23,145 nt of DNA from Elusimicrobiota bacterium. Lineage in GTDB: Bacteria > Elusimicrobiota > Elusimicrobia > Elusimicrobiales > UBA9959. Under the pieces are notes generated by a model. It did not search any database, had not been told where the DNA came from, and saw only the letters and a list, made by a program, of their open reading frames with translations. The position numbers were made by a program, and so were the translations under genes. Where the stretch lies: NCBI GenBank assembly GCA_027340875.1, contig DAIENX010000097.1:1-23145 (forward strand), written 5' to 3'. Shown one piece after another: positions 1 through 23,145 of the stretch (the stretch's first letter is position 1; each line of letters opens with the position of its first letter).

Positions 1-2
1 CC

Positions 3-434
3 GCGGACCCCGTTAAGAACTATCCCACCTGGACCGTGCCGGCCAGGCTGGTGCGGCAGGTCGGCGAGCGCCTGCGCTCCGAGTTCTCCTTCGACTACCT
101 GGACGTGCTGACCGCCAACGACTGGCTCCCGGTCCCCGCCGCCGGCGAGACCCCCGCCAAGGAAGGCTCGTTCGAGGTGGTCTATATAGTTTCCGCCCTC
201 GAGGCCGGCCACCGGGTCTGCCTGCGCGCCTCCGTACCGCGCGCCGACGGCGCCTCTCTCCCCAGCCTGTACGGCATCTTCATGGCCGCCGACTGGCAGG
301 AGCGCGAGGTCTACGACATGTACGGCATCCATTTCGAGGGACATCCCAACCTCAAGCGGATCCTGACCCACGACCAGCTCAAGGGCTTCCCGCTGCGGAA
401 AGACTACAAGCATACCCCGGACAGCTACGATTAA
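3..434 (+). CDS. nuoC: NADH-quinone oxidoreductase subunit C (5'-truncated by window edge)
   Basis: Frame is open from base 3. Contains the NuoC signature [26 protein letters not shown]...GFPLRKDY and lies directly upstream of nuoD. Confidence 0.93.
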
Positions 435-435
435 G

Positions 436-1572: not shown

Positions 1573-1582
1573 GCCTTTTAAC

Positions 1583-2863
1583 ATGACCGAAGAAACGATA
1601 GCCGCTGCCCCCGCGATCCCCGAACCGGTGTTCAACACCGCCAACGGCAGGCTGCTGATGCCGGACAACCGGTACTGGCCCACCGACAAGTGGAAGAGCC
1701 CGTTCTCGCTGCCGATCTACAGGAACGGCTTCGCGATACTGGTCGGTTTCTTCTCCGGATTGCTGCTGGCCGTCTGGATGCTGGGCGAGCTCGGCCCCAG
1801 GATAGACCCCCTTTACCAGGCCGGCGTGCAGTACGCGCTCGGCGCGGGCGTCCCGATGGTCCTGATAAAGCTGGCCTGGACCTTCATAAAGGGCGCCGTC
1901 CTGCTGGCCGTGCCGCTGCTGAACGCGCTTTTCGCGGTCTGGTGGGAGCGGAAAGTTTCCGGCCACATCCAGTCCCGCATGGGCCCGATGTACGTGGGCC
2001 GCTTCCAAGGCGTGCTGCAGACCGCGGCCGACGGCCTGAAGCTCTTCCTTAAAGAGGACATAGTCCCCGAGTGCGCCGACCACCTGGTGCACCTGCTCGC
2101 CCCCGTCGTGGTGATAGTCCCCGCCATACTCGCTTTCGCCCCGATACCGTTCGGCCGCGAGCTGATCTACGCGGACATGGACATAGGCACCGTCTACGTC
2201 TTCGCCGTGGCCGGCGTCTCGGTGATGGGCATAATCATGGCCGGCTGGGGCAGCGGCAACAAGTTCTCGCTGCTCGGCGGCCTGCGCTCGGCGGCCCAGC
2301 TGGTCTCCTACGAGATACCCCGCACGTTCTCCGTGATCCCGGTCATCATGCTGGCCGGCACGCTGAACCTGGCCGGCATAGCCGAGATGCAGACCGGCTA
2401 CTGGGGCGGCATCCTCCCCAGGTGGTTCATCTTCTACCCGGTGGTCGGACAGCTGTCGTTCCTGCTGTTCCTGATAGCCTCGGTGGCCGAGACGAACCGC
2501 ATACCGTTCGACATCCCCGAGGCCGAGTCCGAGCTGGTCGCCGGCTTCAACACCGAGTATTCCGGCATGAAGTTCGCGCTGTTCTTCCTCAGCGAGTTCG
2601 CCTACGTGCTGCTGTCCTGCCTGCTGATGGCCGCCTTCTTTTTCGGCGGCGGCGAGCCGCCGCTGCCGGGCCTGGGCTTCATACCCGGCTGGGCGTGGTT
2701 CTTCGGCAAGGCGCTGACGCTGATGTTCTGCTTCCTCTGGTTCCGCTGGACCTTCCCTAGGTTCCGCGTTGACCGCCTGATGGATTTCAACTGGAAGTTC
2801 CTGCTGCCGGTCAGCCTGCTCAACATAGCGGCCGCCGGCGTCTTCCTGTGGTTCTTATCATGA
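1583..2863 (+). CDS. nuoH: NADH-quinone oxidoreductase subunit H with N-terminal extension (426 aa)
   Basis: Motifs [75 protein letters not shown]...WK. Confidence 0.96.
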
Positions 2864-3372
2864 TCAAATACCTGAGCTTCGTAGCGGACGCCTTCATCAA
2901 CACCCTCAAGGGCCTCTGGCTCACCTTCAAGGTGATGTTCCTGCCCACGGTGACGGTGCAGTACCCCACCGAGAAGCTGGTGCCCTACCCCAGGTTCCGC
3001 GGCATGCTGGCCTACGACGCGGAGAAGTGCATAGCCTGCGGCATGTGCGTGCGCGCCTGCCCCTCCAAGTGCATAGAGCTGGCCAAGGCCGTCGGCCCCG
3101 AGGGCAAGCCGGTGCCGAAGATAGACTGGTACACGATAGACTACGGCCGCTGCAATTTCTGCGGGCTCTGCGAGGAGTCCTGCCCCACCAAGCCCAAGAA
3201 GGCCGTCTGGCACTCGCTCGACTACGAGGCGGTGTTCGACAACCGCGACCAGATGGTCCGCCGCTGGAAGCGGGGTGACGGCCTCTGGGGCGTGGCCCGC
3301 TCCTCGGCCGGTTCCGAGTACGGCCCCCTGCGGGGCCAGATACACATACAGGAAGTGCCGGTGAGAAAATGA
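2860..3372 (+). CDS. nuoI: NADH-quinone oxidoreductase subunit I (2x[4Fe-4S])
   Basis: TVQYP..RFRG plus two ferredoxin motifs, [12 protein letters not shown] and [15 protein letters not shown] at 2860 overlaps the nuoH stop (ATGA) and is preferred over the GTG at 2848. Confidence 0.95.
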
Positions 3373-3863
3373 CAGAACAAATAGTGTTTTACCTGCTTGC
3401 CGGCGTCATAGCCCTCTCCGCCATCGGGGTGGTGACGCTCTCCAACGTGATGCACAGCGCCCTCTGTCTGGGCCTCAGCCTGGCCGGGGTGGCCGGCCTG
3501 TTCGCCGTGCTCGGCACCGACTTCATCTTCGCCGCGCAGATCCTGGTCTACGTAGGCGGCATCGCGGTGCTGATCCTGTTCGTGGTGCTGCTGGCCGGCA
3601 ACAACTCCGGCGGCAAGCTGCCCCGCCAGGTGAACCGGCAGTGGCTGCCGGCGCTGATCATCTGCACGGCCTTCATCTGGGCCTTCTACCGGATAACCGC
3701 CGTCTACGCCGGTTCCACGGTCAAGCTGCCTCCGACCGCCTCGGTGCGGGGCATAGCCTCCATCATGCTGGGCGAATTCGCCGTGCCGTTCGAGCTGATC
3801 TCCATAGTGCTGCTGGCCTCGATGACCGGCGCCGTGCTGTTCGGCAGGAGGAAGCCGGAATGA
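3369..3863 (+). CDS. nuoJ: NADH-quinone oxidoreductase subunit J
   Basis: Hydrophobic protein with [24 protein letters not shown] and [10 protein letters not shown] motifs. ATGA overlap with nuoI. Confidence 0.95.
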
Positions 3864-4165
3864 CCCTCTACCACTACCTGGCCCTCTCCGGCCTGCTGTT
3901 CGCCTCCGGAGTGTTCGGCGTGCTGACGCGCCGCAACATCATCGGCATCCTGATGTCGATAGAGCTGATGCTGAACTCCGCAAACATCAATTTCGCCGCC
4001 TTCAACAGCTACCTGTACCCGGACCGCCCGCTCGGCCAGGTGGCGGTGATCTTCATCATCACGCTGGCCGCCGCCGAGGTGGTGGTGGGCCTGGCCCTGG
4101 TGATGGCCATCTACAAGAACCTCAAGAGCGTCTACGCCGAGGACTACAATATCCTGAAAGGATAG
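3860..4165 (+). CDS. nuoK: NADH-quinone oxidoreductase subunit K (101 aa)
   Basis: C-terminal part of ORF 3641..4165, starting at ATG 3860 (ATGA overlap with the nuoJ stop). Motifs RRNII..LMSIELMLN and AAAEVVVGLA with both conserved Glu. Confidence 0.95.
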   Translation: MTLYHYLALSGLLFASGVFGVLTRRNIIGILMSIELMLNSANINFAAFNSYLYPDRPLGQVAVIFIITLAAAEVVVGLALVMAIYKNLKSVYAEDYNILKG

Positions 4166-4175
4166 CCGCAAACCC

Positions 4176-6113
4176 ATGCTCGAATACGTCTACATACTGC
4201 CGCTGTTGTGCTTCGCCGCCGCGGGCCTGATACTGGCCTTCGGCAAATGGTTCCCGGGCAAGGGCGCCTCGATAGGCATCGCCGTGGCCGGCTTCAACTT
4301 CGCCGTGGCGGCCACACTGTTCTTCAAGGCCCTGGGCGGCGGACTGCAGCTGCCGTACGAGCATTCTATCCCCTGGTTCAGCTTCGGCGAGCACCTGGCC
4401 ACGCTCGGCGTCTACGTGGACGGCCTGACCATCGCGATGCTGATAGTGGTTACCACCGTCAGCCTGCTGGTGCATATCTACTCGCTGGGTTACATGCACG
4501 GCGACCCGCGCTTCAAGCGCTTCTACTCCTATCTCTCTCTGTTCACCGCCTCGATGCTCGGCCTGACGATAACCAGCAGCATGATGGTGTTCTTCATGTG
4601 CTGGGAGCTGGTAGGCGTCTGCTCCTACCTGCTGATCGGCTTCTGGTTCGAGAAGCCTTCCGCCGCGTACGCCGGCAAGAAGGCCTTCATCACCACCAAG
4701 CTGGGCGACCTCGGCTTCCTGGTCGGCCTGCTGGCCCTGTTCTACTGCGCCGGCACCTTCGAGATCTCCAAGATCCTCGAGCTGGCCCACGCCAACGCCC
4801 TTCCGATAGCCGCGGCCGGCGGCGCCGCGATCCTGCTCTTCTTCGGCGCGGTCGGCAAGTCCGCGCAGTTCCCGCTGCTGATCTGGCTGCCGGACGCGAT
4901 GGAGGGCCCGTCCCCGGTCTCCGCGCTGATCCACGCCGCCACGATGGTCGCGGCCGGCGTCTACATGGTCGCCCGCCTGTACGCGGTCTACGCGCTGTCC
5001 CCCGCGGCGATGAACGTCGTCGCCTGGACCGGCGCGATAACCGCCTTCACCGCCGCTTCTATGGCGCTGACCTGCTTCGACCTTAAGCGCGTGCTCGCCT
5101 TCTCCACCGTCAGCCAGCTCGGCTACATGATGCTCGCGCTCGGCGCCGGCAGCTTCACGGCCGGCATGTTCCACCTGACCACGCACGCCTACTTCAAGGC
5201 GCTGCTGTTCCTCGCGGCCGGCTCGGTGCTGCACGCGGTGCACAGCAACGACATGCGCGAGATGGGCGGCCTGCGGCACAAGATGCCGGTAACCTATTTC
5301 ACGTTCCTAGCCGGCACGCTGGCGCTGGCCGGCATCCCGCCGTTCGCAGGCTTCTTCTCCAAGGACGAGGTCCTGGCCGGCGCGCTGGCCAGGAACCCGT
5401 ACCTGTTCCTGCTGGGCGCCGTGGCCGCCGCGATGACGGCCTTCTACATGGCCCGCGCGTTCATCATGACCTTCCACGGCAAGCCGCGCGACGCCCATAA
5501 GCACGACCACGCGCACGAGAACCCGGCCACGATGACCGTGCCGCTGATGTTCCTGTCGGTGCTGGCCCTGATCTCCGGCTGGGCGCTGGCCCACGGCGAA
5601 CTGTTCGAGCACCTGGTCAATTTCGAGGGCGCGCTGCCGTTCGAGCTGCACCACGTCTCGCACGGCACGGTGGCGCTGGTCTCCACGATAGTCGCGGTGG
5701 TCTCGATGGGCAGCGGCCTGTGGCTGTACCGCTTCAAGCCCGAGATCCCGGCCGCGCTCAGGGAGAAGTTCTCCTTCTTCGTGGACATGCTCGAGAAGCG
5801 CTACTGGCTGGACGCCTTCTTCCTGATGTGGGTGGACATCGGCGACTGGTTCAGCCGCTTCCTGTTCGTCTTCGATTTCGAGTTCCTCGACCAGATGGCC
5901 ATAGACGGCTGGGCCTGGCTGACGCTGAAGCTCGGCGCCGTCCAGGGCTGGATCGATACCTACATAGTCGACGCGACCGTGGACATGTTCGGCACGGTCT
6001 CGCTGGCCGGCGGCAGGCTCGCCCGCACGGTGCAGACCGGCTTCGTGCAGAACTACCTGCTTTTCGTGGCCGTCGCGGTCTCGATATTCGCGGCCATAGC
6101 TTTTTCGGGATAG
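4176..6113 (+). CDS. nuoL: NADH-quinone oxidoreductase subunit L (645 aa)
   Basis: Motifs YSLGYM, WELVGVCSYLLIGFW, GKSAQFPL..WLPDAMEGPSPVSALIHAATMV, THAYFKALLF, GFFSKD, QTG.VQNY. Confidence 0.97.
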   Translation: MLEYVYILPLLCFAAAGLILAFGKWFPGKGASIGIAVAGFNFAVAATLFFKALGGGLQLPYEHSIPWFSFGEHLATLGVYVDGLTIAMLIVVTTVSLLVHIYSLGYMHGDPRFKRFYSYLSLFTASMLGLTITSSMMVFFMCWELVGVCSYLLIGFWFEKPSAAYAGKKAFITTKLGDLGFLVGLLALFYCAGTFEISKILELAHANALPIAAAGGAAILLFFGAVGKSAQFPLLIWLPDAMEGPSPVSALIHAATMVAAGVYMVARLYAVYALSPAAMNVVAWTGAITAFTAASMALTCFDLKRVLAFSTVSQLGYMMLALGAGSFTAGMFHLTTHAYFKALLFLAAGSVLHAVHSNDMREMGGLRHKMPVTYFTFLAGTLALAGIPPFAGFFSKDEVLAGALARNPYLFLLGAVAAAMTAFYMARAFIMTFHGKPRDAHKHDHAHENPATMTVPLMFLSVLALISGWALAHGELFEHLVNFEGALPFELHHVSHGTVALVSTIVAVVSMGSGLWLYRFKPEIPAALREKFSFFVDMLEKRYWLDAFFLMWVDIGDWFSRFLFVFDFEFLDQMAIDGWAWLTLKLGAVQGWIDTYIVDATVDMFGTVSLAGGRLARTVQTGFVQNYLLFVAVAVSIFAAIAFSG

Positions 6114-6153
6114 CCGTCCGGCAGCTCCGGGCGGTATTGACTCGGTGAATATT

Positions 6154-6160
6154 CAGGAGA
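6154..6160 (+). promoter_or_regulatory. Shine-Dalgarno of nuoM
   Basis: CAGGAGA 8 nt upstream of ATG 6169. Confidence 0.6.
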
Positions 6161-6168
6161 ATTAAAAC

Positions 6169-7632
<1,464 letters not shown>

Positions 7633-7653
7633 CGGCAGGTCCCGCGCAACTAT

Positions 7654-9075
7654 ATGCTTAACATAGCCCTGATCAACCCCGAGATAATGCTGGCCCTGGC
7701 CGGGCTCTTCATACTGGTCATCGGGGCTTTCATCAGCGAGGAGCGCGCGAAGGTGCTTATGCACCTCGGCACCCTCTGCGTGACCGTGGTCCTGATGCTG
7801 GTCCTCTCGCAGCCGGCCGGCTACGGCATAGGCGCCATGTGGGTGGCCGACCCGGGCGCGCTGCTGTTCAAGTCCGTTATCCTGATATCGGCGGCGCTGA
7901 CGCTGCTGCTGTCGGTCAACTATCCAAATATCCCGGCGCGGCACGTCGGCACCTATACCGCCCTGCTGCTGTGGGCCAGCTGCGGCATGATGCTGCTGTC
8001 CGGCGCGGTGGACCTGGTCTACCTGCTGATAGCGCTGGAACTCATCAGCATCCCCTGCTTCATCCTGACCGGCTTCGAGCAGAAGAGCGAGAAGTCCTCC
8101 GAGGGCGCGCTTAAGTACTTCCTGATGGGCGGCCTCTCCACCGCGGTCACGGTGTTCGGCATCTCGATGTTCTACGGCGCCACCGGCGGCACCACGCTGC
8201 TGGCCGAGAGCGCCTCGGTCTCGCTGCACATGACCGACCCGGTCTACATCATCGGCATGCTGTTCGTGATGGTGGGCTTCGGCTTCAAGATCTCCATGGT
8301 GCCGTTCCACTTCTGGGCCCCCGATGCCTACGAGGGAGCTCCCACTCCGGTCACCGCCTACCTGTCGGTGGCCTCCAAGCTGGCCGCGCTGGGCGCGATG
8401 CTGCGCATCTTCACCTCGGTGGTGCCTCACTACGCCATCAACGCCTCGCTGGTGGTGGCCGTGCTGGCCGCGCTGACGATGACGCTCGGCAACCTGGCCG
8501 CGCTCTATCAGACCAACGTCAAGCGCCTGCTGGCCTATTCCTCCATCGCGCAGGCCGGCTACATGCTGATAGGCCTGGTGGTGGCCGACCCTATAGGCCG
8601 CGAGAGCGTCTTCTTCTACGCGTTGGCGTATCTCGCCACCAACATGGGAGCCTTCGCCGTGGCCATAGCCGTGGCCGGCAAGGCCGGCTCCTACGAGCTC
8701 GATATCTTCAACGGCCTGGCCAAGCGCTCGTTCGGCCTGGCCGTGGTGATGGTGATGTTCCTGCTTTCGCTGGCCGGCATACCGCCGCTGGCCGGCTTCG
8801 TGGCCAAGTTCTACGTCTTCGCCTCGGCCGTCAACTCGCAGCAGTACCTGTGGCTGGCGATAGTCGGCGTGGTGAACAGCGTGATCTCGGTCTACTACTA
8901 CATGGGCATAGCGCGCCGGATGTTCTTCGTCGAACCCGATACGGCGGAGGGCGTGGAGCACGACGTCTACGTCTCGGGCGTGATCTTCGTGACCTGCGCG
9001 GCCACGCTGCTGATGGGCATACTGCCCGGGCCGCTGATAGAAGCCGCCAAGTCCTGCGCCACCTTCCGGTTCTGA
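7654..9075 (+). CDS. nuoN: NADH-quinone oxidoreductase subunit N (473 aa)
   Basis: Motifs EGALKYF, GFKISMVPFHFWAPDAYEGAPTP, KRLLAYSSIAQAGY, SLAGIPPLAGFVAKF, SVYYY. Confidence 0.97.
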   Translation: MLNIALINPEIMLALAGLFILVIGAFISEERAKVLMHLGTLCVTVVLMLVLSQPAGYGIGAMWVADPGALLFKSVILISAALTLLLSVNYPNIPARHVGTYTALLLWASCGMMLLSGAVDLVYLLIALELISIPCFILTGFEQKSEKSSEGALKYFLMGGLSTAVTVFGISMFYGATGGTTLLAESASVSLHMTDPVYIIGMLFVMVGFGFKISMVPFHFWAPDAYEGAPTPVTAYLSVASKLAALGAMLRIFTSVVPHYAINASLVVAVLAALTMTLGNLAALYQTNVKRLLAYSSIAQAGYMLIGLVVADPIGRESVFFYALAYLATNMGAFAVAIAVAGKAGSYELDIFNGLAKRSFGLAVVMVMFLLSLAGIPPLAGFVAKFYVFASAVNSQQYLWLAIVGVVNSVISVYYYMGIARRMFFVEPDTAEGVEHDVYVSGVIFVTCAATLLMGILPGPLIEAAKSCATFRF

Positions 9076-9576: not shown

Positions 9577-11769
9577 CTATATGGGCTGCAGCGGAGCGTA
9601 CTTGAGCATGAAGGTCTGGCGCACGCCGCTGTCGAACACCACGGTGACCTTGGCCAGCTCCCCTGAGCCTATCTGGTCCACCACGCGGCCGGGTCCGTGT
9701 ATCGGATGCATGACCTTGCGGCCTTTGCCCACGCGCGGGATGGACGGCGGCGGCTGGTACGAGGCTATCACCTGCACGTCCTCCTCTCCGCGGCGCGGCG
9801 CCGTTTCCTTGGCCACCTTGCTCTCGTAGATGAAGCGGGAGGCCAGGTTGGGGTAGGTGGTGCCGTAGACGCGGCGGGTGTTGGCCCAGCTGAGGTACAG
9901 GCGTTCCTTGGCGCGGGTCATGCCCACGTAGGCGAGCCTGCGCTCCTCCTCCAGGTCCTCCTCGGAGGAGTTGGCGGCGTTTATCGGAAAAAGGTTCTCC
10001 TCCAGGCCGGTCAGGAACACGGCCGGGAACTCGAGGCCCTTGGCCAGGTGCACGGTCATCAGCGTGACAGCGTGCGCGTCGGTGTTCATCGCGTCCACCT
10101 GGCTGGCGAGCATCACGTCCTCGAGGTACTTGTGCAGGGTGGGGGCCTGGCCTTCCTTGGCGCAGCGCTCCTCGAAATCCTTGACCGCGTTCACTAGTTC
10201 CTGCAGGTTGCCGAGGCGCGCGAGCGACTCCTGCGGGTCCTTCTCCGCCTCGTCCTCGCACATCTTCCAGTAGCCGGAGTTGGTCAGTATCTTTTCCAGC
10301 ATCGCCGAGGGAGTGGCGCTGAACAGGTCGGATTTGACGCCCTCGAGGAGGTCGAAGAACTCCTTGATGCCGCGGCGCGCGGTGTTGGTGATGTCGGGCA
10401 CCTGCTCGGCGGAGAGGAAAGCGTCGTAGAGGGGCATCTCCTTCTGCCTGGAGTAGGAGAGCACGCGCTCTATAGCGGTCTTGCCTATGCCGCGGGCCGG
10501 CAGGTTGATGACGCGCAGCAGGCTCACCGTGTCGCCGGGGTTCACCAGCAGCTTCAGGTAGGCCAGCGTGTCCTTGACCTCCTTGCGCTCGTAGAAGCGC
10601 ATCGAGCCTATCAGCCTGTACGGTATGCGGCGGTTGCGGCAGGCCTCTTCGAAAGCGCGGCTCTGGTTGTTGGTGCGGTAGAACACCGCGATATCGTTGT
10701 AGCCGAGGCCGGCGCGGTTGGTGAGCTGGCGGATCTCCTCCGCCACGCCCTTGGCCTCGTCGTTTTCGTTGTTGAACTCCAGCAGGCGGGGTGGCTCCCC
10801 GTGCTCGGCCTTGGTCCAGAGGTTCTTGGGCCTGCGGTTGCGGTTGTGCTTGATGACCTCGTTGGCCGCGTGCAGGATGCGGGCGGTGGAGCGGTAGTTC
10901 TCCTCCAGCACCACGGTGGCCGCGTCCGGGAAGTCCTTCTCGAACTCCATGATGTTGCGGATGTCCGCCCCGCGCCAGCCGTAGACGGACTGGTCAGGGT
11001 CGCCCACCACGCAGAGGTTCTTGTGCCTGGCCGAGAGGGTCTTCACCAGCACGTACTGCGCGTGGTTGGTGTCCTGGTACTCGTCCACCAGGATATACTG
11101 GAAGTTCTCCTGGAAATATTCCTTTATCTCCTCTTTCTCGTTGAGCAGCTCCACGGTGCGCACTATCAGGTCCCCGAAGTCGAGCGCGCCGGCTTCGACG
11201 AGCTTCTTCTGGTAGCGGTGGTAGATCTTCGCGGCCTTCAGCCGCGCCTCGTCGCCGACGGCCTCGGCGTTTATCATGTAGCTCTGCGCGTCCAGCAGGT
11301 CGTCCTTGGCGCGGGAGATTATCGACAGGTACATCGAGGCCTTGTTCTTTTCCTCGGCGTAGCCGAGCTCCTCCATCGCCAGGTTGATCAGCTTCTTCTG
11401 GTCGTCGTCGTCGTAGATCACGAAGTCGCGCTTCACGCCTATCAGGCTGCCGTGCTGGCGCAGGATGCGCGCGCCCAGCGCGTGGAACGTGTGTATCCAC
11501 ATCCCGCCGGAGTAAGGCACCAGCTTGCCTACGCGGTGCTGCATCTCCTGCGCGGCCTTGTTGGTGAACGTGATGGCCAGTATCCGGGAGGGGGAGATGC
11601 CGGAGGCTATCAGCAGGGCTATCTTGGAGGTGAGCGTCTTGGTCTTGCCGGTGCCGGCCCCGGCCAGTATCAGCAGCGGGCCCGCGAAATACTGCACGGC
11701 CTCGCCCTGCTTAGGGTTGAGGCCTAGCTTTGGCAGCAGCGCGGGGTTGAGGTTGAGGTCCAGGCTCAC
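9577..11769 (-). CDS. pcrA: ATP-dependent DNA helicase PcrA/UvrD (SF1)
   Basis: Motifs LAGAGTGKT, TFTNKAA, DEYQDTN, GDPDQSVYGWRGA, LEENYRST, MTVHLAKGLEF, EERRLAYVGMTRA, and a C-terminal Tudor-like domain (VMHPIHGPGRV...LKYAPL). Confidence 0.95.
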   Translation of the reverse strand: MSLDLNLNPALLPKLGLNPKQGEAVQYFAGPLLILAGAGTGKTKTLTSKIALLIASGISPSRILAITFTNKAAQEMQHRVGKLVPYSGGMWIHTFHALGARILRQHGSLIGVKRDFVIYDDDDQKKLINLAMEELGYAEEKNKASMYLSIISRAKDDLLDAQSYMINAEAVGDEARLKAAKIYHRYQKKLVEAGALDFGDLIVRTVELLNEKEEIKEYFQENFQYILVDEYQDTNHAQYVLVKTLSARHKNLCVVGDPDQSVYGWRGADIRNIMEFEKDFPDAATVVLEENYRSTARILHAANEVIKHNRNRRPKNLWTKAEHGEPPRLLEFNNENDEAKGVAEEIRQLTNRAGLGYNDIAVFYRTNNQSRAFEEACRNRRIPYRLIGSMRFYERKEVKDTLAYLKLLVNPGDTVSLLRVINLPARGIGKTAIERVLSYSRQKEMPLYDAFLSAEQVPDITNTARRGIKEFFDLLEGVKSDLFSATPSAMLEKILTNSGYWKMCEDEAEKDPQESLARLGNLQELVNAVKDFEERCAKEGQAPTLHKYLEDVMLASQVDAMNTDAHAVTLMTVHLAKGLEFPAVFLTGLEENLFPINAANSSEEDLEEERRLAYVGMTRAKERLYLSWANTRRVYGTTYPNLASRFIYESKVAKETAPRRGEEDVQVIASYQPPPSIPRVGKGRKVMHPIHGPGRVVDQIGSGELAKVTVVFDSGVRQTFMLKYAPLQPI

Positions 11770-14439: not shown

Positions 14440-15513
14440 CTAAACGTTGAACTTGAAGAAGCAGATGTCGCCGTCCTTCATCACGTATTCCTTGCCCTCG
14501 GAGCGGATCAGTCCCTTCTCGCGCAGCGTCTTTTCTTCCTTGTGCTTCATGATGTCGTCGAACGAGTAGACCTCGGCGCGGATGAAGCCCTTCTCGAAGT
14601 CGGTGTGGATACGGCCAGCCGCCTGCGGCGCCTTCAGGCCCCGCCTGAGGCTCCACGCGCGCACCTCGTCCTCGGAGCCCGCGGTGAAGAAGCTGATCAA
14701 GTCCAGCAGCCTGTAGCCCGCCAGCGCCATCTTCTCGAGGCCGGTGTACTCCTCGCCGAGGTCCTTCAGGAACACGGCCTTCTCCTCGTCCGGCAGTTCT
14801 ATGATCTCGGACTCTATTTTGGCCGAGATCTCCACCAGCACGGCCTCGCGGGTCTTCAGGAAATCACGCAGCTTCTGCAGCACTTCCTTGTCCGGCTGCT
14901 CGGAGGTGTTGGCCACGAAGAAGACGGGCTTGGTGGTCAGGAGGTTGAAGTCGCGCATTTCCTCGGCGGTATAGCCCGCGTCGCGCGCGGGCTTGCCCTC
15001 TTCGAGCAGCTTCTTTATCTTCTCCAGCCGCACCTGCTTCTCCTCGGCTTCCTTGGTGCGGGCCTTCAGGTCGCGCTGGTTCTTCTCCAGCGCCTTGTCC
15101 ACGGATTCCAGGTCCGCCAGCACCAGTTCCGTTTCGATGACCTCAATGTCCCGCACCGGGTCTATCTCTCCGAGCACGTGCACCACGTCCGGGTCCTTGA
15201 AAACGCGCACCACCTGCACTATTGCGTCCACCTCGCGTATGTTGGCCAGGAACTTATTGCCCAGGCCCTCGCCGCGGCTGGCGCCCTTAACGAGGCCTGC
15301 GATGTCCACGAACTTGATGTAGGACGGCACTTTCTTCGGCGGCTTGAACAGATCGAACAGCGCGTCCAGGCGCTTGTCCGGCACCGGCACCACGCCCACG
15401 TTCGGGTCTATCGTGGTGAACGGGTAGTTGGAGGAAGCCGCCCCGGCGCGCGTCAGCGCGTTGAACAGGGTGGATTTGCCTACGTTGGGTAGTCCTACGA
15501 TGCCGATTTCCAT
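14440..15513 (-). CDS. ychF: Ribosome-binding ATPase YchF (Obg family)
   Basis: Motifs [43 protein letters not shown], NxxE G4 variant (NTSE), and TGS domain [17 protein letters not shown]. Confidence 0.97.
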
Positions 15514-15618
15514 GTGTTATCCTTTAAAAACGCGAAAAAGCCGCATTAATTATACAATTTTGCCGGGTCGGCCCCGCTGTAAGGGCCCCGCGCAAAAAAT
15601 GTAAAATACCCCTACTTT
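15514..15618. promoter_or_regulatory. Divergent promoter region ychF/valS
   Basis: AT-rich. TATAAT on the minus strand at 15549-15554 (ychF) and TAAAAT on the plus strand near 15603-15608 (valS). No convincing -35 seen. Confidence 0.45.
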
Positions 15619-18249
15619 ATGGAAAAGAACGTCTCCCCGATAAAACCCCAGGAGAACGCCGGTTTCCCGGCCAGCTACCTGCCTGCCGAGGTGGAGCCTG
15701 CCTGGTGCGATAAGTGGGAGAAGAGCAAGCTGCATCACTACGACCAGGCCCGCCCGCGCCAGGAGACCTTCGTGGTGGACACTCCTCCGCCGACCGTGTC
15801 GGGCTCGCTGCATATCGGTCACGTCTTCAGCTACACGCAGACCGACATCTTCGTGCGCTTCCAGCGCATGCTCGGCAAGAACATCTTCTATCCGATGGGC
15901 TGGGACGACAACGGCCTGCCCACGGAACGCCGCGTGCAGAACCTCTTCGGCGTGCGCTGCGAGCCGTCGGTGCCGTACAAGACGGATTACAAGTCCTCCG
16001 GTCCGAAAAAGGAACTGAAGGATTACGAGCATATCTCGCGCCGCAACTTCCTGGAGCTCTGCGAGCAGCAGACCGCCGAGGACGAGAAACGCTATGAGGC
16101 GCTGTGGCGCCGGCTCGGGCTGTCCATAGACTGGCGGCAGACCTATTCCACCGTCGGGGCGCATTGCCGCAAGACCTCCCAGCTGTCCTTCCTCGACCTC
16201 TTCAAGAAGGGCCACGTTTACAGCGCCGAAACGCCCACGCTGTGGGACACCACGTTCCGCACCGCCGTCGCCCAGGCGGAATGCGAGGACCGCGAGGCCA
16301 ACGGCTTCTTCCACGACATAAAGTTCCAGGTGGAGGGCGGCGGAGATTTCACGATAGCCACCACCCGCCCCGAGCTGCTCGCGGCCTGCATAGCCGTGGT
16401 CGCCCATCCCGACGACGCGCGTTACAAGGCGCTGTTCGGCAAGAAGGCGCTGACGCCGCTGTTCAAGGCCCCGGTGCCGATAATGCCCTCTTTCCACGCC
16501 GACCCCGAGAAGGGCACCGGCATCATGATGGTCTGCACTTTCGGCGACATAGCCGACGTGCAGTTCTGGCGCGACCACAAGCTGCCGCTGCGCCAGGTGA
16601 TAGGCCGCGACGGGCGCCTGATCCCGGTGCAATTCGGACTGGGGCTTTTCGAGAGCGCCGACCACGCCGCCGCCAACGCCGCCTACGGCCAGCTCGCCGG
16701 CCTGTACGCTAAGCAGGCCCGCACGAAGACCGTGGAGCTGCTGCGCGCCGAAGGTTCGCTCGTGGGCGAGCCGCGCCCCACCAAGCAGGCCGTTAAGTAC
16801 TACGAGAAGGGCGACCTGCCGCTCGAATTCGTGCCGACGAGGCAGTGGTACATCCGCATCCTCGAGAACAAGCCGGCGCTGCTCGAGCAGGGCCGCAAGG
16901 TGAAGTGGCACCCCGACTATATGCTCAAGCGCTACGAGCAGTGGGTGGAGGGCCTCAACCAGGACTGGTGCATCAGCCGCCAGCGTTATTTCGGCGTGCC
17001 GTTCCCGGTCTGGTACCCGCTGGATCACGACGGCGCCCCCGACTATTCCAGCCCCATCGTGGCCGCGGCCGAGCGCCTGCCGGTGGACCCGCAGACCGAC
17101 GTTCCGCCCGGCTATACCGAAGCGCAGCGCGGCAAGCCCGGCGGCTTCATGGGCGACCACGACGTCATGGATACCTGGGCCACTTCCTCGCTGACGCCGA
17201 TGATCTCCAGCGGCTGGGCGACGGACAAGGAGAAGCACGCGCGACTCTACCCGGCCGACCTGCGCCCGCAGGCCCACGAGATCATCCGCACCTGGGCCTT
17301 CTACACCATCACGAAGAGCTGGATGCACGAGAACTCCGTGCCGTGGCATAACGCCGGCATCAGCGGCTGGGTAGTGAGCCCGGATAAGGGCAAGATGAGC
17401 AAGTCCAAGGGCAATACCATCACTCCCGAGGGCCTGCTGCAGACCTATTCGGCCGACGCGCTGCGCTATTGGAGCGGCAAGGCCAAGCTCGGCCAGGACA
17501 CGGTCTACGACGAGAACGTCTTCAAGGTGGGCATGCGCCTGGCCACCAAGCTCTTCAACGCCAGCAAGTTCGCGCTGATGCAGATGAAGGGCCCGGCCGC
17601 CGCCGGCGCCAGGCTCGGCCCCGCCGACATCACCGAGCCGCTCGACCGCGCCTGGGTGGAGCACCTCAAGGGCATAGTCGAGGCTTCGCGCCGGGATTTT
17701 GAAAACTACGAGTACGCCGGCGTGCTGCTCTACGTGGAGTCCGCTTTCTGGGATTTTTGCGACAACTACCTGGAGCTGGTTAAGAACCGCGCCTATTCCG
17801 GCAAGCCGGAAGCCGCGCGCTCGGCCTGCGCGGCGCTGGACTGGACGCTGTCCGTGTTCCTGCGGCTGTTCGCGCCGTTCATGCCTTTCATAACCGATGA
17901 GGTCTGGGGCTGGTCCTACGCGGCCGCCTCCGGCCGGCCGTCGGTGCACAAGGCGCCGTGGCCGTCCTCCGTGGAGATGTCTTCCGCCGCCGGAGACAAG
18001 CTGGTGCTGGAGACCGCCCGCAAGGTGCTGGAGGCCGTGCGCACGAAGAAGGCCGCCGAGAAGCGCAGCGTGAAGTGGCCGGTGGCCAGGCTTTCCGTGG
18101 AATGCGGTCCGAAGCAGGCCGCCGCGCTCAAGCTCGCGCTGGAGGACGTGCTGCTGGCCGGCTGCGTGGACAAGGCGGGGATGACGCTGAAAGAAACCCA
18201 GTCGGACGAAGCCTCCCTCTCCGTCAACGTGGAGCTGGGCGCTGCCTAG
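15619..18249 (+). CDS. valS: Valine--tRNA ligase, archaeal-type (type 2)
   Basis: Motifs DTPPPTVSGSLHIGH, YPMGWDDNGLPTER, IATTRPELL, GTGIMMVCTFGD, DWCISRQRYFGVPFP, DVMDTWATSS, RPQAHEIIRTWAFY, KMSKSKGN. Confidence 0.96.
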   Translation: MEKNVSPIKPQENAGFPASYLPAEVEPAWCDKWEKSKLHHYDQARPRQETFVVDTPPPTVSGSLHIGHVFSYTQTDIFVRFQRMLGKNIFYPMGWDDNGLPTERRVQNLFGVRCEPSVPYKTDYKSSGPKKELKDYEHISRRNFLELCEQQTAEDEKRYEALWRRLGLSIDWRQTYSTVGAHCRKTSQLSFLDLFKKGHVYSAETPTLWDTTFRTAVAQAECEDREANGFFHDIKFQVEGGGDFTIATTRPELLAACIAVVAHPDDARYKALFGKKALTPLFKAPVPIMPSFHADPEKGTGIMMVCTFGDIADVQFWRDHKLPLRQVIGRDGRLIPVQFGLGLFESADHAAANAAYGQLAGLYAKQARTKTVELLRAEGSLVGEPRPTKQAVKYYEKGDLPLEFVPTRQWYIRILENKPALLEQGRKVKWHPDYMLKRYEQWVEGLNQDWCISRQRYFGVPFPVWYPLDHDGAPDYSSPIVAAAERLPVDPQTDVPPGYTEAQRGKPGGFMGDHDVMDTWATSSLTPMISSGWATDKEKHARLYPADLRPQAHEIIRTWAFYTITKSWMHENSVPWHNAGISGWVVSPDKGKMSKSKGNTITPEGLLQTYSADALRYWSGKAKLGQDTVYDENVFKVGMRLATKLFNASKFALMQMKGPAAAGARLGPADITEPLDRAWVEHLKGIVEASRRDFENYEYAGVLLYVESAFWDFCDNYLELVKNRAYSGKPEAARSACAALDWTLSVFLRLFAPFMPFITDEVWGWSYAAASGRPSVHKAPWPSSVEMSSAAGDKLVLETARKVLEAVRTKKAAEKRSVKWPVARLSVECGPKQAAALKLALEDVLLAGCVDKAGMTLKETQSDEASLSVNVELGAA

Positions 18250-18254
18250 GCTCC

Positions 18255-18351
18255 CGGACCTGGCAAAAAAGAGCCGGCCCCTTCCGGGACCGGCTCTTTT
18301 TTTTGTCCGCCAGTTAAATCTGGCGGTCCTTTCAGGATGAAGTTCGAGACT
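18255..18351 (+). repeat. Structured direct repeat, copy 1 (left island boundary)
   Basis: CGGACC-TGGCAAAAAA-[hairpin]-T8-G..[CCGCCAG/CTGGCGG hairpin]-core TGGCGGTCCTTTCAGGATGAAGTTCGAGACT. The core is 27/31 identical to 23010-23040. Confidence 0.8.
18265..18304 (+). terminator. Intrinsic terminator of valS (also hairpin 1 of the repeat)
   Basis: AAAAAAGAGCCGG-C-CCC-TTCC-GGG-A-CCGGCTCTTTTTTTT, 15 nt after the valS stop. Confidence 0.85.
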
Positions 18352-18607
18352 GCAAGGAGAGGGCCAGGCCGGGCGCGCCTGGCCCCCGTGTGGCCGTCGC
18401 ACCCGGCCTGGCCCCTGCCTGAACTGTACCCGCCCATTCATGATACGGCGCAATGACCCACCCGGGATAAATGCCAGTAAACCCGGCATAGGTTTTGTAG
18501 AATTATTCTGTTAGGGTCGGGCGACTTTTGTGATACTTATGTTGGCTTGCGTTTAGTATTCTTACTGGCGGATGCCTATGAAGATCCTTGAGTAATGGAG
18601 TGATTCC

Positions 18608-21409
18608 ATGAGAACCAAGATATTGTTGTCGTTTGTGCTACTATCGGTAAGTCTCCTTAATCGAGGGTATGCTGGTTTTCCGGCCTTCGTTCAAGCATCG
18701 CCGAGTGAATTCTCAAAATTGGAGCTTTCTAGTGGTGTTAAACTAATTGATTTCGATGTTTCTCGTGTTCGTCCTCAAGCGGTATTGCTGACAGTTGATG
18801 CGAAACAGGCATATACGCTGTCGCTGTGGGAGATCGGAAAGCCTTCCGCCGAGATGTTTTGGGCGATCCCTAAAGAATATCAGCCTAAAAACATCCTCTT
18901 CCATCCTGAGGATAAAAATTTCTTTCTGCTTGCGAAAGACCGAACTGATTATGTTATTTTAAAAATCAGCAAGGACCAGACAGTTAAAAGCCAAGTAATC
19001 TTCCGAACTAAAAAACAATTGCGCCGGTTGGTAGTCGGGCCACGGCCGTTTAGTTACGAATACAAATTGCCGCCGCTATACAGGCTATTCTTCGGCGTTA
19101 AGACCGGAGACAACATTTATGCTATTAATTCTGTTACAGAAGATGGCACCCGTGAATATCAAGTCATTGGGGCAAAATCCGATCCAGCGGAGATTAAAAG
19201 GCTTTCTTCGGATCTTGAAACAATAGGTTTAAAAGCGGCGTCTGCCCTTCCGTTATCTTTTCACCCTGCAGGCCATATAATGTTGTGGGAAGACGCGGAT
19301 AATTGTTTTCAGAAAGCAAAATACGCCAGCACTTCGTGGGGAGACACCAAACCGCTGTGGAGGCGGAAGGTCTGCGGCGGTACGGTTACTGTTACCCCGA
19401 ACGGGCTTGGGATACTTAACTGGCGTAAGGGCCAACCTGGAGTGGTTCTTTATCTTGACAATGGTCGGGACGAGCGGGTTTTGGCTTCGAGTTACACTTT
19501 CAATGGAACCCCATCGTCAACCCCCGATGGTAAGGGCATCGTCGGTGAAGTGAAAGATGACAATGGCGTCGTGACATTGGTCTATACTCCTGTCGATGTT
19601 CCCCTTGCCGATGTGGCAAATGCCTGGATGTTCGTTGGAAACCGCAATGAGACAGAATTGTTCCATGGCAGCGGCGGACTACTGCGCGATTTGAAAGACG
19701 ATCAGTTGTATAACCTGTACGAATCAGAGTTCTACACCTGTGGCGGGTATGATGAAACTCTGCCCGCGCGCCCGTATCTTGTTACCACAGATGTGTTCTG
19801 GGAAATATATGCCGCTGCATATGAGGGGATGTTCGTGCTGCAAGAGCGGAAGGCCGCCATGCCGGAGTTCCGGAAGTTTATCGAGGGCGGTTCCGGCTAC
19901 TTCACAAAATCTCCCACAAGACTTCGCCGTGTCTTTCAGGTGCTGCTAAATGTTTTAACCGAGGATAATCCTCAGGCCGGCAGTGAGGCGGACAAAATAC
20001 TGAAGGCGGAGGGGCAATCGCCTTCGAATGTGTTGGGGGTCGAACGATTCTTTTACGGGGATTTAAAGATTCGTGGACATTACAACTATAGCCGCGAGAC
20101 GCAACGCTATTTTAAAGCATTTAGATACCTCTCAATGATCTCCTTTACTCCGCAGGAGATGGGTGAACTGCAAAGCCTTCCTCAGGAAATAAAAGCGCAT
20201 GGGTTGGCGTGGATCAGCGCTTACAAGCCATTCATTGCGCCATCACGTGCCCCAGGGATATTGCATGCGACGGATTTTCCCAAATACCTTGGGCGTTCAA
20301 AACAGGATGAACAGACTATCTTCCCGCTTGCATGGGGGATGGATAACGAGGTGCTTAATTCCACTGTCTACCATGAGTTATGGCCGGAAGGGGAACAGAT
20401 AAAAGGTCCTGGTGGATTGCGGTTGCTGCCCTCCGGACTGGACCTGGCTGCGGTAATGGGGAGTTCGCTTGCAGAGGTGCTGCTTGAGGATGCAGGTGAA
20501 TTCCAGAAATACCCGCCGCTTAAGGATATGCTCGTTGCATTGCGGGCAAAGCTTACCCCTGAAACAAGGGGGGATAACCTTTACGACAATTGGATAAATG
20601 CGCTGGCTACTCAATGGAACGATGCGGCACTGGTGAGTAAGGATCAATTCGCCGGGGATACCTGGGCGGCTAAGCGCCTACAGACCGGGCTTGCCTCATG
20701 GGCGACCCTGCGGCATGCTACCGTACTTGTCAATGAGCGTACTGTCGCGGAATGCGGTGAGTCAGGCTTCGAGGATATTATAATGGAGAAACCGCGTGGT
20801 TACGTTGAACCGGATCCGGCAACTTTCGAGGCAATAGCGGGGCTATTTGCCGCCGCCTCGGAAATTGCAAAAGGCCTGCCGGCTGGCGATGATTCGCTTT
20901 ATGATAAAAACGATAAACGAAATTATGGCTTAAAAGAGGGGCTGGTTAAGAGACTCGCTGAAGTCAGGGAGAAGGCATTGTCGTTTGCTGCTATCTCGCG
21001 CAAGGAAATTGCAGGCCAACAGCTGACAGAGGACGAGTATGATGCAATTCACTATCTCGCCAGAGTGGCAGAGTACAACTTTTTGGTCCTAAAGAGCTTG
21101 GCAAAAGAGGATTTGGCTATATCCACGCCTGATCCAATGCCGAAGATCGCGGATGTAGCAGGCGGGCCGCTCACAGGTTTTCTGCTTTCTGCGGTAGGGC
21201 GTCCGATGGAATGGGATGCGATAACGCCATATTTTGGCCGCAGGCAGATAACACGCGGGGCGGTATATTCGTATTATGAATCCCGCTCTTCCATCCTTCG
21301 AAATGATGCAGAGTGGCTAAAGAATCTGCCGCAGGCTACACATCCTGCCTGGGTGCAGAAATTCGTGAGCCCGGAGCAAGTCTCTTGTCCGCCAGTCGCG
21401 CCATTCTAG
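18608..21409 (+). CDS. Exported DUF3160-family protein with N-terminal beta-propeller-like region (933 aa)
   Basis: Signal peptide MRTKILLSFVLLSVSLLNRGYA and SD GGAG at 18597-18600. DUF3160-like motifs PYLVTTD, RGHY, LQTGLASWATLRHATVL, GYVEPDP, IADV, GAVYSYYE, D.EW were recognised from memory, not by HMM. Confidence 0.8.
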   Translation: MRTKILLSFVLLSVSLLNRGYAGFPAFVQASPSEFSKLELSSGVKLIDFDVSRVRPQAVLLTVDAKQAYTLSLWEIGKPSAEMFWAIPKEYQPKNILFHPEDKNFFLLAKDRTDYVILKISKDQTVKSQVIFRTKKQLRRLVVGPRPFSYEYKLPPLYRLFFGVKTGDNIYAINSVTEDGTREYQVIGAKSDPAEIKRLSSDLETIGLKAASALPLSFHPAGHIMLWEDADNCFQKAKYASTSWGDTKPLWRRKVCGGTVTVTPNGLGILNWRKGQPGVVLYLDNGRDERVLASSYTFNGTPSSTPDGKGIVGEVKDDNGVVTLVYTPVDVPLADVANAWMFVGNRNETELFHGSGGLLRDLKDDQLYNLYESEFYTCGGYDETLPARPYLVTTDVFWEIYAAAYEGMFVLQERKAAMPEFRKFIEGGSGYFTKSPTRLRRVFQVLLNVLTEDNPQAGSEADKILKAEGQSPSNVLGVERFFYGDLKIRGHYNYSRETQRYFKAFRYLSMISFTPQEMGELQSLPQEIKAHGLAWISAYKPFIAPSRAPGILHATDFPKYLGRSKQDEQTIFPLAWGMDNEVLNSTVYHELWPEGEQIKGPGGLRLLPSGLDLAAVMGSSLAEVLLEDAGEFQKYPPLKDMLVALRAKLTPETRGDNLYDNWINALATQWNDAALVSKDQFAGDTWAAKRLQTGLASWATLRHATVLVNERTVAECGESGFEDIIMEKPRGYVEPDPATFEAIAGLFAAASEIAKGLPAGDDSLYDKNDKRNYGLKEGLVKRLAEVREKALSFAAISRKEIAGQQLTEDEYDAIHYLARVAEYNFLVLKSLAKEDLAISTPDPMPKIADVAGGPLTGFLLSAVGRPMEWDAITPYFGRRQITRGAVYSYYESRSSILRNDAEWLKNLPQATHPAWVQKFVSPEQVSCPPVAPF

Positions 21410-22824
21410 GCGTATTGCTTTCGACTCTTCTCACTCCTGCCGGCGCAGTCGGGCCGGCAGATGGGGTGCGGCTGGTATTTGCCGGAGATATCTTACTGTC
21501 TCGCCAAGTGGAAAGAGAACTTGAGCTCACAAAAAATTCTCCGTGGAAAGAGTTGTCTCCGCTGTTTCATGGGGCGGATTTTGTAATGGGGAATTTTGAG
21601 GGGGCAGTAGGGGCGTCGGACTCGTGCCCCGCTGAACTGGCGGAGAAACATCTTTGTTTTGCGGTGCGGGAAAAATTTCTTCCCCTTCTGCATGACGCTG
21701 GATTTTCCGCGGTTGGGATCGAGAACAATCATAGCGTAGATTTGGGACCTACAGGAAAACAGCGCACGGCAGAGGCCCTTAATAAGGCGGGGGTGGGGGC
21801 TTTAAGCTTTGCAGGCTCGCCGTATTTTTGCCGAAAAAAAGGAATTACTGTATCTATAGTTGCCGTCGATCTTATTTCGGCCAAGGTGCCGTTGGTGGAA
21901 TTAAGGCAGAAATTCCGCTTGGCCTCTAATTTTTCGGACCTGGTCGTGGCGTATGTCCACTGGGGCAGCGAGTTAAAGGATTGGGTTTCCGATGAGCAGG
22001 AGTTGATGGCAAGTTGGTTGGTCGAAAACGGAGCTGACTTGATTGTTGGCCACCATCCTCATGTAATTGAGAGGGCATCTTGTGTGTCCGGCAAGCCGGT
22101 GTTTTACTCGCTTGGGAATGATTTGTTCGACCAGAAATATCCTGCAACTAAAGAAGGGGCATTGGCTGACTGCGTGATAAAGAATGGGGAAATGCGCTGT
22201 GGGGCATTGCGCAGCAAAACCGGTGAAAGTTCTTTCTTCCCATTGGCGTCAGAACTGGATAAAGACCTTACTGATAACCTGTCATCATGCACCGTCAGAC
22301 TTCATGGGACATTGGCAATAGACGGTTTTTCGATGCGGCCGGTGATGGATGACGAGTTGGCTACTTCTGCAAACATCGCAATAGAGGCGCTTAAAGATGG
22401 TCGTCGGGTCTGGCGCACTCCGGCGAAAAAACTATTGTCGTTGGAAAAAATGCAGGTGAAAGGTGGCCGGGACTTGCTGCTTACTCTTGAAGAACATTAT
22501 TCGCCACTCGACAAAGAGCATTCTCCCAGGCCATATGTGTATGATGTCGGAGCATCGATGCTCGCGGCTAAATGGAGAGGGTCTGCTCTTGCGTGGCCAT
22601 TGATCGATGCTGTCGTGGTGAAAAAGCAGGCAGGAATGCTGTGCGCACTTCATCGGGGAGATTCGTTTTTGATCCCAGAGCCAGAAACAAAAAGCGTAAG
22701 AACAGCAATCTATCAATGGAATGGCTTTGGGTTTTCAGGTGTGCAGGACCGTGCCGCAACGGAATCCTGCCGGAGCTATTATAAAAAAGAAGCGGAGTCT
22801 TTCGGGCTGCGATTCGTTGACTGA
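21385..22824 (+). CDS. CapA (PGA_cap) family metallophosphoesterase with signal peptide and C-terminal extension
   Basis: Motifs AGDILLSR, GNFEG, NNHSVDLG, VHWGSE, GADLIVGHHPHV, YSLGND. An in-frame TTG at 21385 has GGAG 8 nt upstream and yields the signal peptide MSASRAILGVLLSTLLTPAGA. The ORF track start is GTG 21313. Confidence 0.88.
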   Translation: MSASRAILGVLLSTLLTPAGAVGPADGVRLVFAGDILLSRQVERELELTKNSPWKELSPLFHGADFVMGNFEGAVGASDSCPAELAEKHLCFAVREKFLPLLHDAGFSAVGIENNHSVDLGPTGKQRTAEALNKAGVGALSFAGSPYFCRKKGITVSIVAVDLISAKVPLVELRQKFRLASNFSDLVVAYVHWGSELKDWVSDEQELMASWLVENGADLIVGHHPHVIERASCVSGKPVFYSLGNDLFDQKYPATKEGALADCVIKNGEMRCGALRSKTGESSFFPLASELDKDLTDNLSSCTVRLHGTLAIDGFSMRPVMDDELATSANIAIEALKDGRRVWRTPAKKLLSLEKMQVKGGRDLLLTLEEHYSPLDKEHSPRPYVYDVGASMLAAKWRGSALAWPLIDAVVVKKQAGMLCALHRGDSFLIPEPETKSVRTAIYQWNGFGFSGVQDRAATESCRSYYKKEAESFGLRFVD

Positions 22825-22872
22825 GGCGGAAATGGAAGTGTTGCTTGGGGGAAGGGAAATCGCATCAAATTA

Positions 22873-22900
22873 AAAACCGCGGCTCTGATGGCGCGGTTTT
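22873..22900 (+). terminator. Putative terminator hairpin after the CapA-family gene
   Basis: AAAACCGCG-N10-CGCGGTTTT 9-bp stem. Confidence 0.55.
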
Positions 22901-22928
22901 GCTCTGTTTCCGAAAAAGCCTTCCTCAT

Positions 22929-23040
22929 CGGACCCATAATGGCAAAAAATAACCGCCGGGCGGTGCCGGCGGTCATTTTTTTGCGCCAAATCCAGAACGG
23001 GAAGAAATTTGGCGGTCGCTACAGGATGAAGTTAGAGACT
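22929..23040 (+). repeat. Structured direct repeat, copy 2 (right island boundary)
   Basis: CGGACC-CATAA-TGGCAAAAAA-[ACCGCCGG/CCGGCGGT hairpin]-T7-G-[CGCCAAAT/ATTTGGCG hairpin]-core TGGCGGTCGCTACAGGATGAAGTTAGAGACT. Confidence 0.8.
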
Positions 23041-23145
23041 ACTTTGCGCAACATCCCGAGGTAACTTTATAAATACCGCTGATGAGCCGTACAATCAGCG
23101 GTAGGCGGATCTTATCCGCGAGAAGCCGTCGCGGGCGCGGCCACT

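Follow-up and report, generated by a model that had tools for sequence, protein, structure and literature searches.

Accessory islands are known to stack in tandem. For the ssrA islands of Dehalococcoides, the accessible text describes islands arranged in tandem at a tRNA-like gene, in its 3' part, short direct repeats with a conserved adjacent motif, a CcrB-related serine recombinase (DsiB) encoded beside the target, and 15 islands without an integration module (PMC3146451). The staphylococcal cassette chromosome (SCC) and pseudo-SCC elements, in the part of the source available, are tandem serine-recombinase islands with integration-site repeats, and a recombinase-less unit among them was proposed to depend on the enzyme of its neighbour (PMC2900268). 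In Prochlorococcus tycheposons, according to the available portion of the preprint, incoming elements at a tRNA gene push older ones inward and leave partial tRNA copies between them (bioRxiv 10.1101/2020.12.28.424599). Here I examine a window of 23,145 nucleotides, the whole of contig C84 from the genome of an Elusimicrobiota bacterium of the lineage UBA9959 (GCA_027340875.1, DAIENX010000097.1; G, L and C numbers denote the genomes, loci and contigs compared, and G000 is the source genome). Behind the valine-tRNA ligase gene valS, this window carries a two-gene unit of low GC between two repeats, copy A (18255-18351) and copy B (22929-23040). With a probability of about 0.65, the repeats are attachment (att) sites of large serine integrase islands that use the CCA end of tRNA-Glu(CTC), and the unit between them is a 4.7-kb integrase-less island, likely displaced by a later one.

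All elements named in a preliminary description of this DNA are where it placed them: a first hairpin at 18271-18296 and 22952-22973, a second at 18307-18326 and 22984-23014, and 31-nt cores at 18321-18351 and 23010-23040 that are identical at 27 of 31 positions (genome BLAST E = 6e-5). A binomial estimate puts the chance expectation for such a core pair in the window at ~0.002. The larger claim of a homologous, covarying repeat of ~100 bp did not survive, as homology is limited to AAAT plus the 31-nt core, ~36 bp in total. The supposed covariation of the first hairpin compares two unrelated terminators, the native valS terminator in copy A and another conserved block in copy B; the former is recognized as native because island-free relatives share terminator and trailer with filled alleles. 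A scan of the G000 genome found 68 sites of the form A5-hairpin-T5, and the prefix CGGACC..TGGCAAAAAA, thought to open both copies, is not kept after valS in five aligned relatives. Beyond the earlier description, the core is the 3' end of a tRNA on the minus strand, and the remainder is the tail of an integrase gene.

Copy A is an island end, the one that faces the chromosome. The DNA after valS was compared in 16 relatives with this valS type, and the empty allele that the preliminary description had suggested seeking there does exist: an intact tRNA-Glu(CTC), convergent with valS, stands exactly at the position of copy A behind the same valS terminator in G002 and G017, to which a tRNA-based search added G071. 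These empty alleles and the filled ones (G015, G018 and G000) agree up to TGGCGG and split directly after it. The chromosomal arm, B' (18265-18320), consists of a hairpin (18271-18296) that follows valS and, with its A and T tracts, looks like a terminator, and then the tRNA trailer; it holds the first hairpin of the preliminary description together with the 5' arm of the second, and its layout is the same in the three empty alleles and in the filled G015 and G018. Next comes core A, CCGCCA (18321-18326, minus strand), which is the displaced 3' end of tRNA-Glu(CTC), and the 25-bp right half-site of attP (the P arm) of the window island (18327-18351, plus strand), which is translated as WRSFQDEVRD in the frame of the integrase. 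Directly after valS, G015 and G018 show the core together with the arm that the window has, and G001 and G022 carry window-type sites further along. At 18354-18463 (plus strand) lies the inner end of a conserved left end of ~650 bp, with a long inverted repeat at 18361-18414. Relative to full left ends ~555 bp are missing between 18351 and 18354, leaving the window island's own left end partly deleted, and similarity between islands ends at 18463. The 650-bp left end (L053 about 6950-7650; window 18354-18463 and 23070-23145) is non-coding and rich in inverted repeats, and fragments of it also occur on C11, away from any core.

A tRNA search of the genus yielded 30 loci, 27 of which are tRNA-Glu(CTC) and the other three tRNA-Glu(TTC). 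Three of the 27 stand directly behind valS and three directly behind ychF; eight adjoin an integrase gene, five an integrase-type arm cut by the contig end, two an integrase tail behind an IS30-like end, three a window-type block and two another arm, and one locus is too short. The possibility that the target was instead a tRNA-Glu(TTC) missing from the assembly was rejected: the tRNA that relatives have at copy A is Glu(CTC), and the core in which Glu(TTC) ends is not the same.

Copy B is the right end of an integrase-less unit followed by a newer island, because 30 homologous ends abut a P arm, an intact tRNA or the arm of another island. On its left side is a conserved right-end block of integrase-less units (22862-22938, plus strand), made up of a terminator-like hairpin at 22872-22900 and a dyad at 22909-22932. 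An optional second terminator-like hairpin (22952-22973, within 22944-22983) follows, which is what had been taken for the first hairpin of copy B and is present in some units and absent in others. A short remnant of the P' arm (22981-23009, plus strand) contains the second hairpin of copy B and resembles the arm beside tRNA-Glu(CTC) on C22 and tRNA-Asp on C44; in autonomous islands this arm is the last codons of the integrase gene. Core B, CCGCCA (23010-23015, minus strand), is the joint between the window island and the next one, whose P arm (23016-23145, plus strand) runs off the contig and is 100% identical to G001 over 130 bp. Positions 23010-23072 read WRSLQDEVRDYFAQHPEVTL* in the integrase frame, the integrase tail of the attP form and the tail in which the integrase of G003 ends; therefore the conserved core is the integrase gene tail in its attP state.

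The right-end block matches in 38 of 80 genomes, many of the weaker matches being terminators only. The 30 units with this block come from 23 genomes in three genera, and the kilobase upstream of it falls into 22 clusters, so the further copies delimiting variable cargo that had been anticipated are indeed there. To the right of the core stand a P arm in 16 units, an intact tRNA in 10 (three Glu(CTC), three Glu(TTC) and four Asp) and the arm of another island family in four. Mean column identity of the block is 74% (27 units, three genera), and I did not find it inside the integrase modules examined. Where the core is of the Glu(TTC) type (L187, L190, L196 and L198), an arm from a different island family comes after the block. 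Some integrase-less units end in a second right-end block (L054 about 10024-10149; L085, L095, L094, L191), which has a related first hairpin but another middle part.

A linked recombinase, the third item the preliminary description had proposed to look for, was found as a family of large serine recombinases at the same sites. Its proteins carry the Resolvase, Recombinase and zinc-ribbon domains that make up the large serine recombinase domain set. The family is present in 46 of 80 family genomes, mostly in the same genera as the P arm, the pattern of which occurs in 36 of the 80 (control 0). G000 has three PF07508 genes, two of them intact and situated at tRNA-His and tRNA-Ser, reading into the tRNA complement. 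Among 30 integrase loci, 27 genes run into a tRNA end and one into a P arm ending WRCSQDIARDNFAQHPEVTL*, and two stop at contig ends. Upstream of the integrase, the same loci have an inverted P site (12), too little DNA (14), none (3) or an inverted tRNA (1), and on C39 and C46 a single integrase gene lies between two inverted arms. The motif TTCGAA, which is the T-loop of the tRNA and probably the motif bound by the zinc domain of the integrase, was located in right arms: of 26 distinct P arms, 13 have its start at +22 and 13 lack it, whereas all 13 tRNA arms have it at +17. For LI integrase, the part of the source available describes this outward shift of the zinc-domain motif, by 5 bp in attP relative to attB (PMC3783163). 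Across 76 sites, conservation to the left of the core is limited to ~6 bases; from -7 to -30 the mean is 0.23 bit, and 2 of the 76 contain TTCGA.

Beside tRNA-Glu(CTC) on C22, ~29 integrase codons are left behind an element end that I take to be IS30-like. In G008 (L138), too, such an end interrupts the integrase gene next to tRNA-Glu(CTC), and the position of the cut almost coincides with that in G000 (C22:1-245). An overlap between C22 and C23 was considered as a contig join and discarded, for it consists of two copies of an insertion sequence (IS) end. At L061 (G067 C72), a palindrome of 20 bp connects tRNA-Glu(CTC) with an inverted P arm, which is what deletion of the integrase between the two inverted arms would leave. 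A palindromic repeat with a GGATTCGAA-like tail follows tRNA-Arg(GCG), Val(TAC), Gln(CTG) and Ala(GGC) (G000 C1, C44, C62 and C106).

Relatives provide the layout that the window shows in part. G063 and G019 have complete two-unit arrays, from valS or ychF to tRNA-Glu(CTC), in which a search for serine integrase alone found none, and in G009 and L053 one or more older units stand ahead of an integrase-bearing unit. Units decay with distance from the tRNA, and the distal sites of G019, G063 and L054 are decayed. The window unit is one partly decayed member of its kind. This pattern fits tandem accretion of integrase-less islands, as in the Dehalococcoides ssrA islands and pseudo-SCC. In the mechanism I propose, the integrase would cut within the 6-bp core and would read TTCGAA in the tRNA T-loop and the same motif 5 bp further out in the island arm; on the left it would need little beyond AAAT(T). 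Because so little left-arm sequence would be required, the tRNA-side joint of a resident island should stay a usable target. Islands would then pile up with the newest next to the tRNA, and the window unit may have come in, or may be able to leave, with the integrase of a sister island or together with its neighbours.

A number of points weigh against this explanation. The G000 assembly contains no intact Glu-type integrase; it is incomplete, and ARAGORN did not detect a tRNA-Asn, Ile, Glu(TTC), Ala(TGC) or Leu(GAG) in it. Only 130 bp of the next island lie on the contig, no G000 contig could be placed after copy B, and the link from the window to tRNA-Glu(CTC) on C22 is drawn from relatives (G063 and G019). 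Ten of the 16 relatives with this valS type have neither a tRNA nor a site directly after valS. The 30 right-end-block units were picked from loci already known to carry the block, so that they are no census, and kin among them are not independent. No joint, circle or empty allele was seen in four sequencing runs, all available as contigs, from which rare circles could have been dropped. Finally, classical serine integrases, as the accessible part of the source has it, disfavour pairings other than attP x attB (PMC3783163), so reuse of the tRNA-side joint would need unusual leniency.

A bolder version sees a lineage-wide, integron-like serine-integrase system, in which standard-ended cassettes with varied cargo at fixed borders move singly among tRNA CCA ends, and a one-sided, T-loop-reading integrase never uses up its target, so that arrays keep growing. 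I consider this possible but doubtful. Somewhat less probable still is the related explanation of a dedicated cassette system of purpose-built units, excised singly as circles and re-inserted at any suitable tRNA by an integrase encoded elsewhere. It would account for a right-end block that is conserved over three genera while the cargo varies, for cargo borders that are sharp at both ends, and for the occurrence of arrays free of integrase. Related cargo ends also appear at different tRNAs and array positions; one such end stands at tRNA-Asp in G020, and its counterpart in G074, with 86% identity along 822 bp, stands at tRNA-Glu(CTC). However, copies A and B make up an attR-like x attP-like pair rather than attL x attR, and a separate 4.7-kb circle is not predicted by classical serine-integrase rules. 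Such a circle, which the preliminary description had envisaged as separately excisable, was absent from the four contig sets, a form of data that drops rare forms, as was the loss of any single unit. The units are several kilobases long, multi-gene and more decayed further from the tRNA, the arm between block and core ranges from 15 to 97 bp in the 30 units, as erosion would leave it, and no fixed platform of integrase plus promoter was found.

It is also improbable, more so than a cassette system, that the window holds a fixed relic, that is, an immobile integrase-less backbone of single origin whose cargo was swapped by homologous exchange between conserved ends. The loss of ~555 bp from the left end at copy A and the decayed distal sites mentioned above agree with immobility. 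Furthermore, the same cargo (99.7% identical over 9.7 kb) lies behind different P-arm variants in the valS array L054 (1-9664) and on G000 C78 (314-9978), which suggests exchange inside the long left end. Yet the P' arm to which the right-end block is joined varies among cores of the Glu(CTC), Glu(TTC), Asp and His types, copy A retains the whole 25-bp half-site in spite of its left-end loss, and an independent groundwater run (X5) contains a 92%-identical cargo copy that begins at the same conserved left border.

An assembly chimera, with valS and copy A joined to the cargo through the repeat at 18354-18464, is very improbable. In three runs the unitigs do end within this repeat, with an overlap of just 24 bases, and cargo depth exceeds that of the valS flank (17.9 vs 12.3, 11.6 vs 6.0 and 13.5 vs 12), a comparison that gives no copy number and is not used here as evidence. 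Nevertheless, both unitigs match the window with 0 differences, window-specific bases included, the repeat is shorter than a read pair and the same layout recurs in other assemblies; a misjoin would in any case alter the cargo and not the identity of the sites. Least credible of all is a repeated structured RNA or miniature element marking hot spots: the first hairpin of the right-end block does keep its pairing (96.6% of cells paired, both-side change in 4 of 11 pairs, above all shuffles), but it is terminator-like and not among the hairpins first described, a search of Rfam with the repeats and one full left end gave nothing over the gathering score, the ~36 bp shared by the copies are accounted for by tRNA end and integrase tail, and the empty alleles weaken the idea further. 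From the preliminary description, att-like sites of a tandem-integration system with a recombinase encoded elsewhere are thus what remains, without the structured element and without hairpin covariation as the definition of a site.

Read as att sites of serine integrase islands, the repeats can be compared with the systems named at the outset. According to the accessible text on the Dehalococcoides islands (PMC3146451), the target there is the T-loop of the transfer-messenger RNA (tmRNA) with a 20-bp repeat, and the integration module has six genes (with DsiA and DsiB); here the 6-bp core lies in the acceptor end of a target tRNA (Glu, Asp, Ser or His), and a single integrase gene reads through the site. 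Unlike those islands, integrase-less units here bear a conserved right-end block and autonomous ones a second, inverted attP. The target in the window is tRNA-Glu(CTC), and the tmRNA gene of G000, on C81, is followed by an ordinary terminator. The SCC elements differ in their target, orfX, and the integrases of this family score 73-79 bits against a CcrB cut-off of 900, far below the cut-offs of CcrA, CcrB and CcrC.

Accretion of cis-mobilizable elements (CIMEs) at the att sites of ICEs (integrative and conjugative elements) and IMEs (integrative mobilizable elements), as the available part of the source presents it, works similarly (PMC5704250). The window has att cores at both ends (18321 and 23010) and the P arm of the next island in tandem, with the tRNA link taken from G063 and G019. 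Unlike the present case, the tRNA example in the accessible part of that source uses tyrosine integrases, and CIMEs are described there as decayed ICEs or IMEs (PMC5704250). The same contrast applies to the tycheposons, for which the part of the preprint at hand counts tyrosine recombinases in 910 of 937, att sites of ~40 nt and many elements with replication genes (bioRxiv 10.1101/2020.12.28.424599). Phage-type large serine integrases (LI/A118) share the domain order and the 5-bp outward shift of the attP motif, as far as the available text goes (PMC3783163). The family integrase has a weak sequence match to A118 integrase and YokA; unlike LI/A118, its left half-site is almost without conserved sequence and its C-terminus changes with the state of the site. 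Integrons, too, form ordered arrays that grow at one end and consist of recombinase-free units, much like the arrays here. Unlike integron cassettes, the units here are multi-gene islands, and a tRNA end joined to an integrase tail accounts for their sites, rather than an attC-type single-strand site. No tyrosine integrase of the integron type lies beside the array: both PF00589 genes in G000 (~303 aa) are on other contigs, and the complete arrays of relatives were searched for serine integrase only. The system belongs neither to the ssrA islands nor to SCC or integrons.

Stacking of accessory islands is known, and what is likely new is this variant, with an integrase-less unit behind tRNA-Glu. 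A literature search that excluded supplements returned no description of this integrase family, and tables from TIGER/Islander may already list such islands; the main text of PMC10083194 does not contain the term 'tRNA'. In the part available, the paper on a 2014 island database states that no targeting of tRNA genes by serine integrases was known (PMC4383910), and the later tycheposon preprint, in its accessible portion, reports a minority of elements with serine recombinases (bioRxiv 10.1101/2020.12.28.424599). The sites described here explain how accessory genes come to be stacked at tRNA ends in an uncultured lineage and define the exact att sites of a family of serine integrases working at the CCA end of tRNAs. 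If the enzyme truly reuses its own product site, it would break the one-way rule that usually holds and might be put to use for loading DNA repeatedly at a single locus.

The unit itself is foreign-looking and without a mobility gene, as first described. Cargo GC is 50%, compared with 64% for the genome, and GC at third codon positions (GC3) is 0.51 vs 0.90 in valS. Its sole genes encode a DUF3160 protein of 933 aa (18608-21409, plus strand; PF11369, E 1e-58), which has a signal-peptide-like N-terminus as read from the sequence, and a PGA_cap (CapA-like) protein of the metallophosphoesterase fold (21313-22824, plus strand; PF09587, E 5e-44; true start uncertain); no gene for integration or transfer lies inside. 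An envelope role for this cargo would be a guess from the CapA-like domain and the N-terminus, and the one paper that a literature search matched to DUF3160 gives no function. The cargo DNA was not found in the 79 other family genomes searched, and the protein is present in 3 of 300 other genomes of the phylum. The cargo is foreign and occurs in other phyla without these ends: a DUF3160 gene and a PGA_cap gene are neighbours at 20 of the 23 foreign loci, whose record titles name Deltaproteobacteria and Acidobacteria in most cases, and there are no arms and no tRNA at any of the 23 (three with 1.5-kb flanks only).

On the other side of copy A, the chromosomal flank consists of valS (15619-18249, plus strand), which encodes a valine-tRNA ligase of the alternative type (NF000540 above cut-off) and in relatives precedes the empty alleles. 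A close match to it is missing in 8 of 24 genus genomes. At the loci concerned (window 14440-18249; L101, L132, L135 and L148), the alternative-type valS stands between ychF and tRNA-Glu(CTC), and in G005, G010 and G024 tRNA-Glu(CTC) comes directly after ychF. It may be that valS itself is an old arrival at the tRNA-Glu(CTC) hot spot. Positions 1-9075 of the window hold a long run of co-directional genes, the translations of which presumably represent subunits of NADH dehydrogenase.

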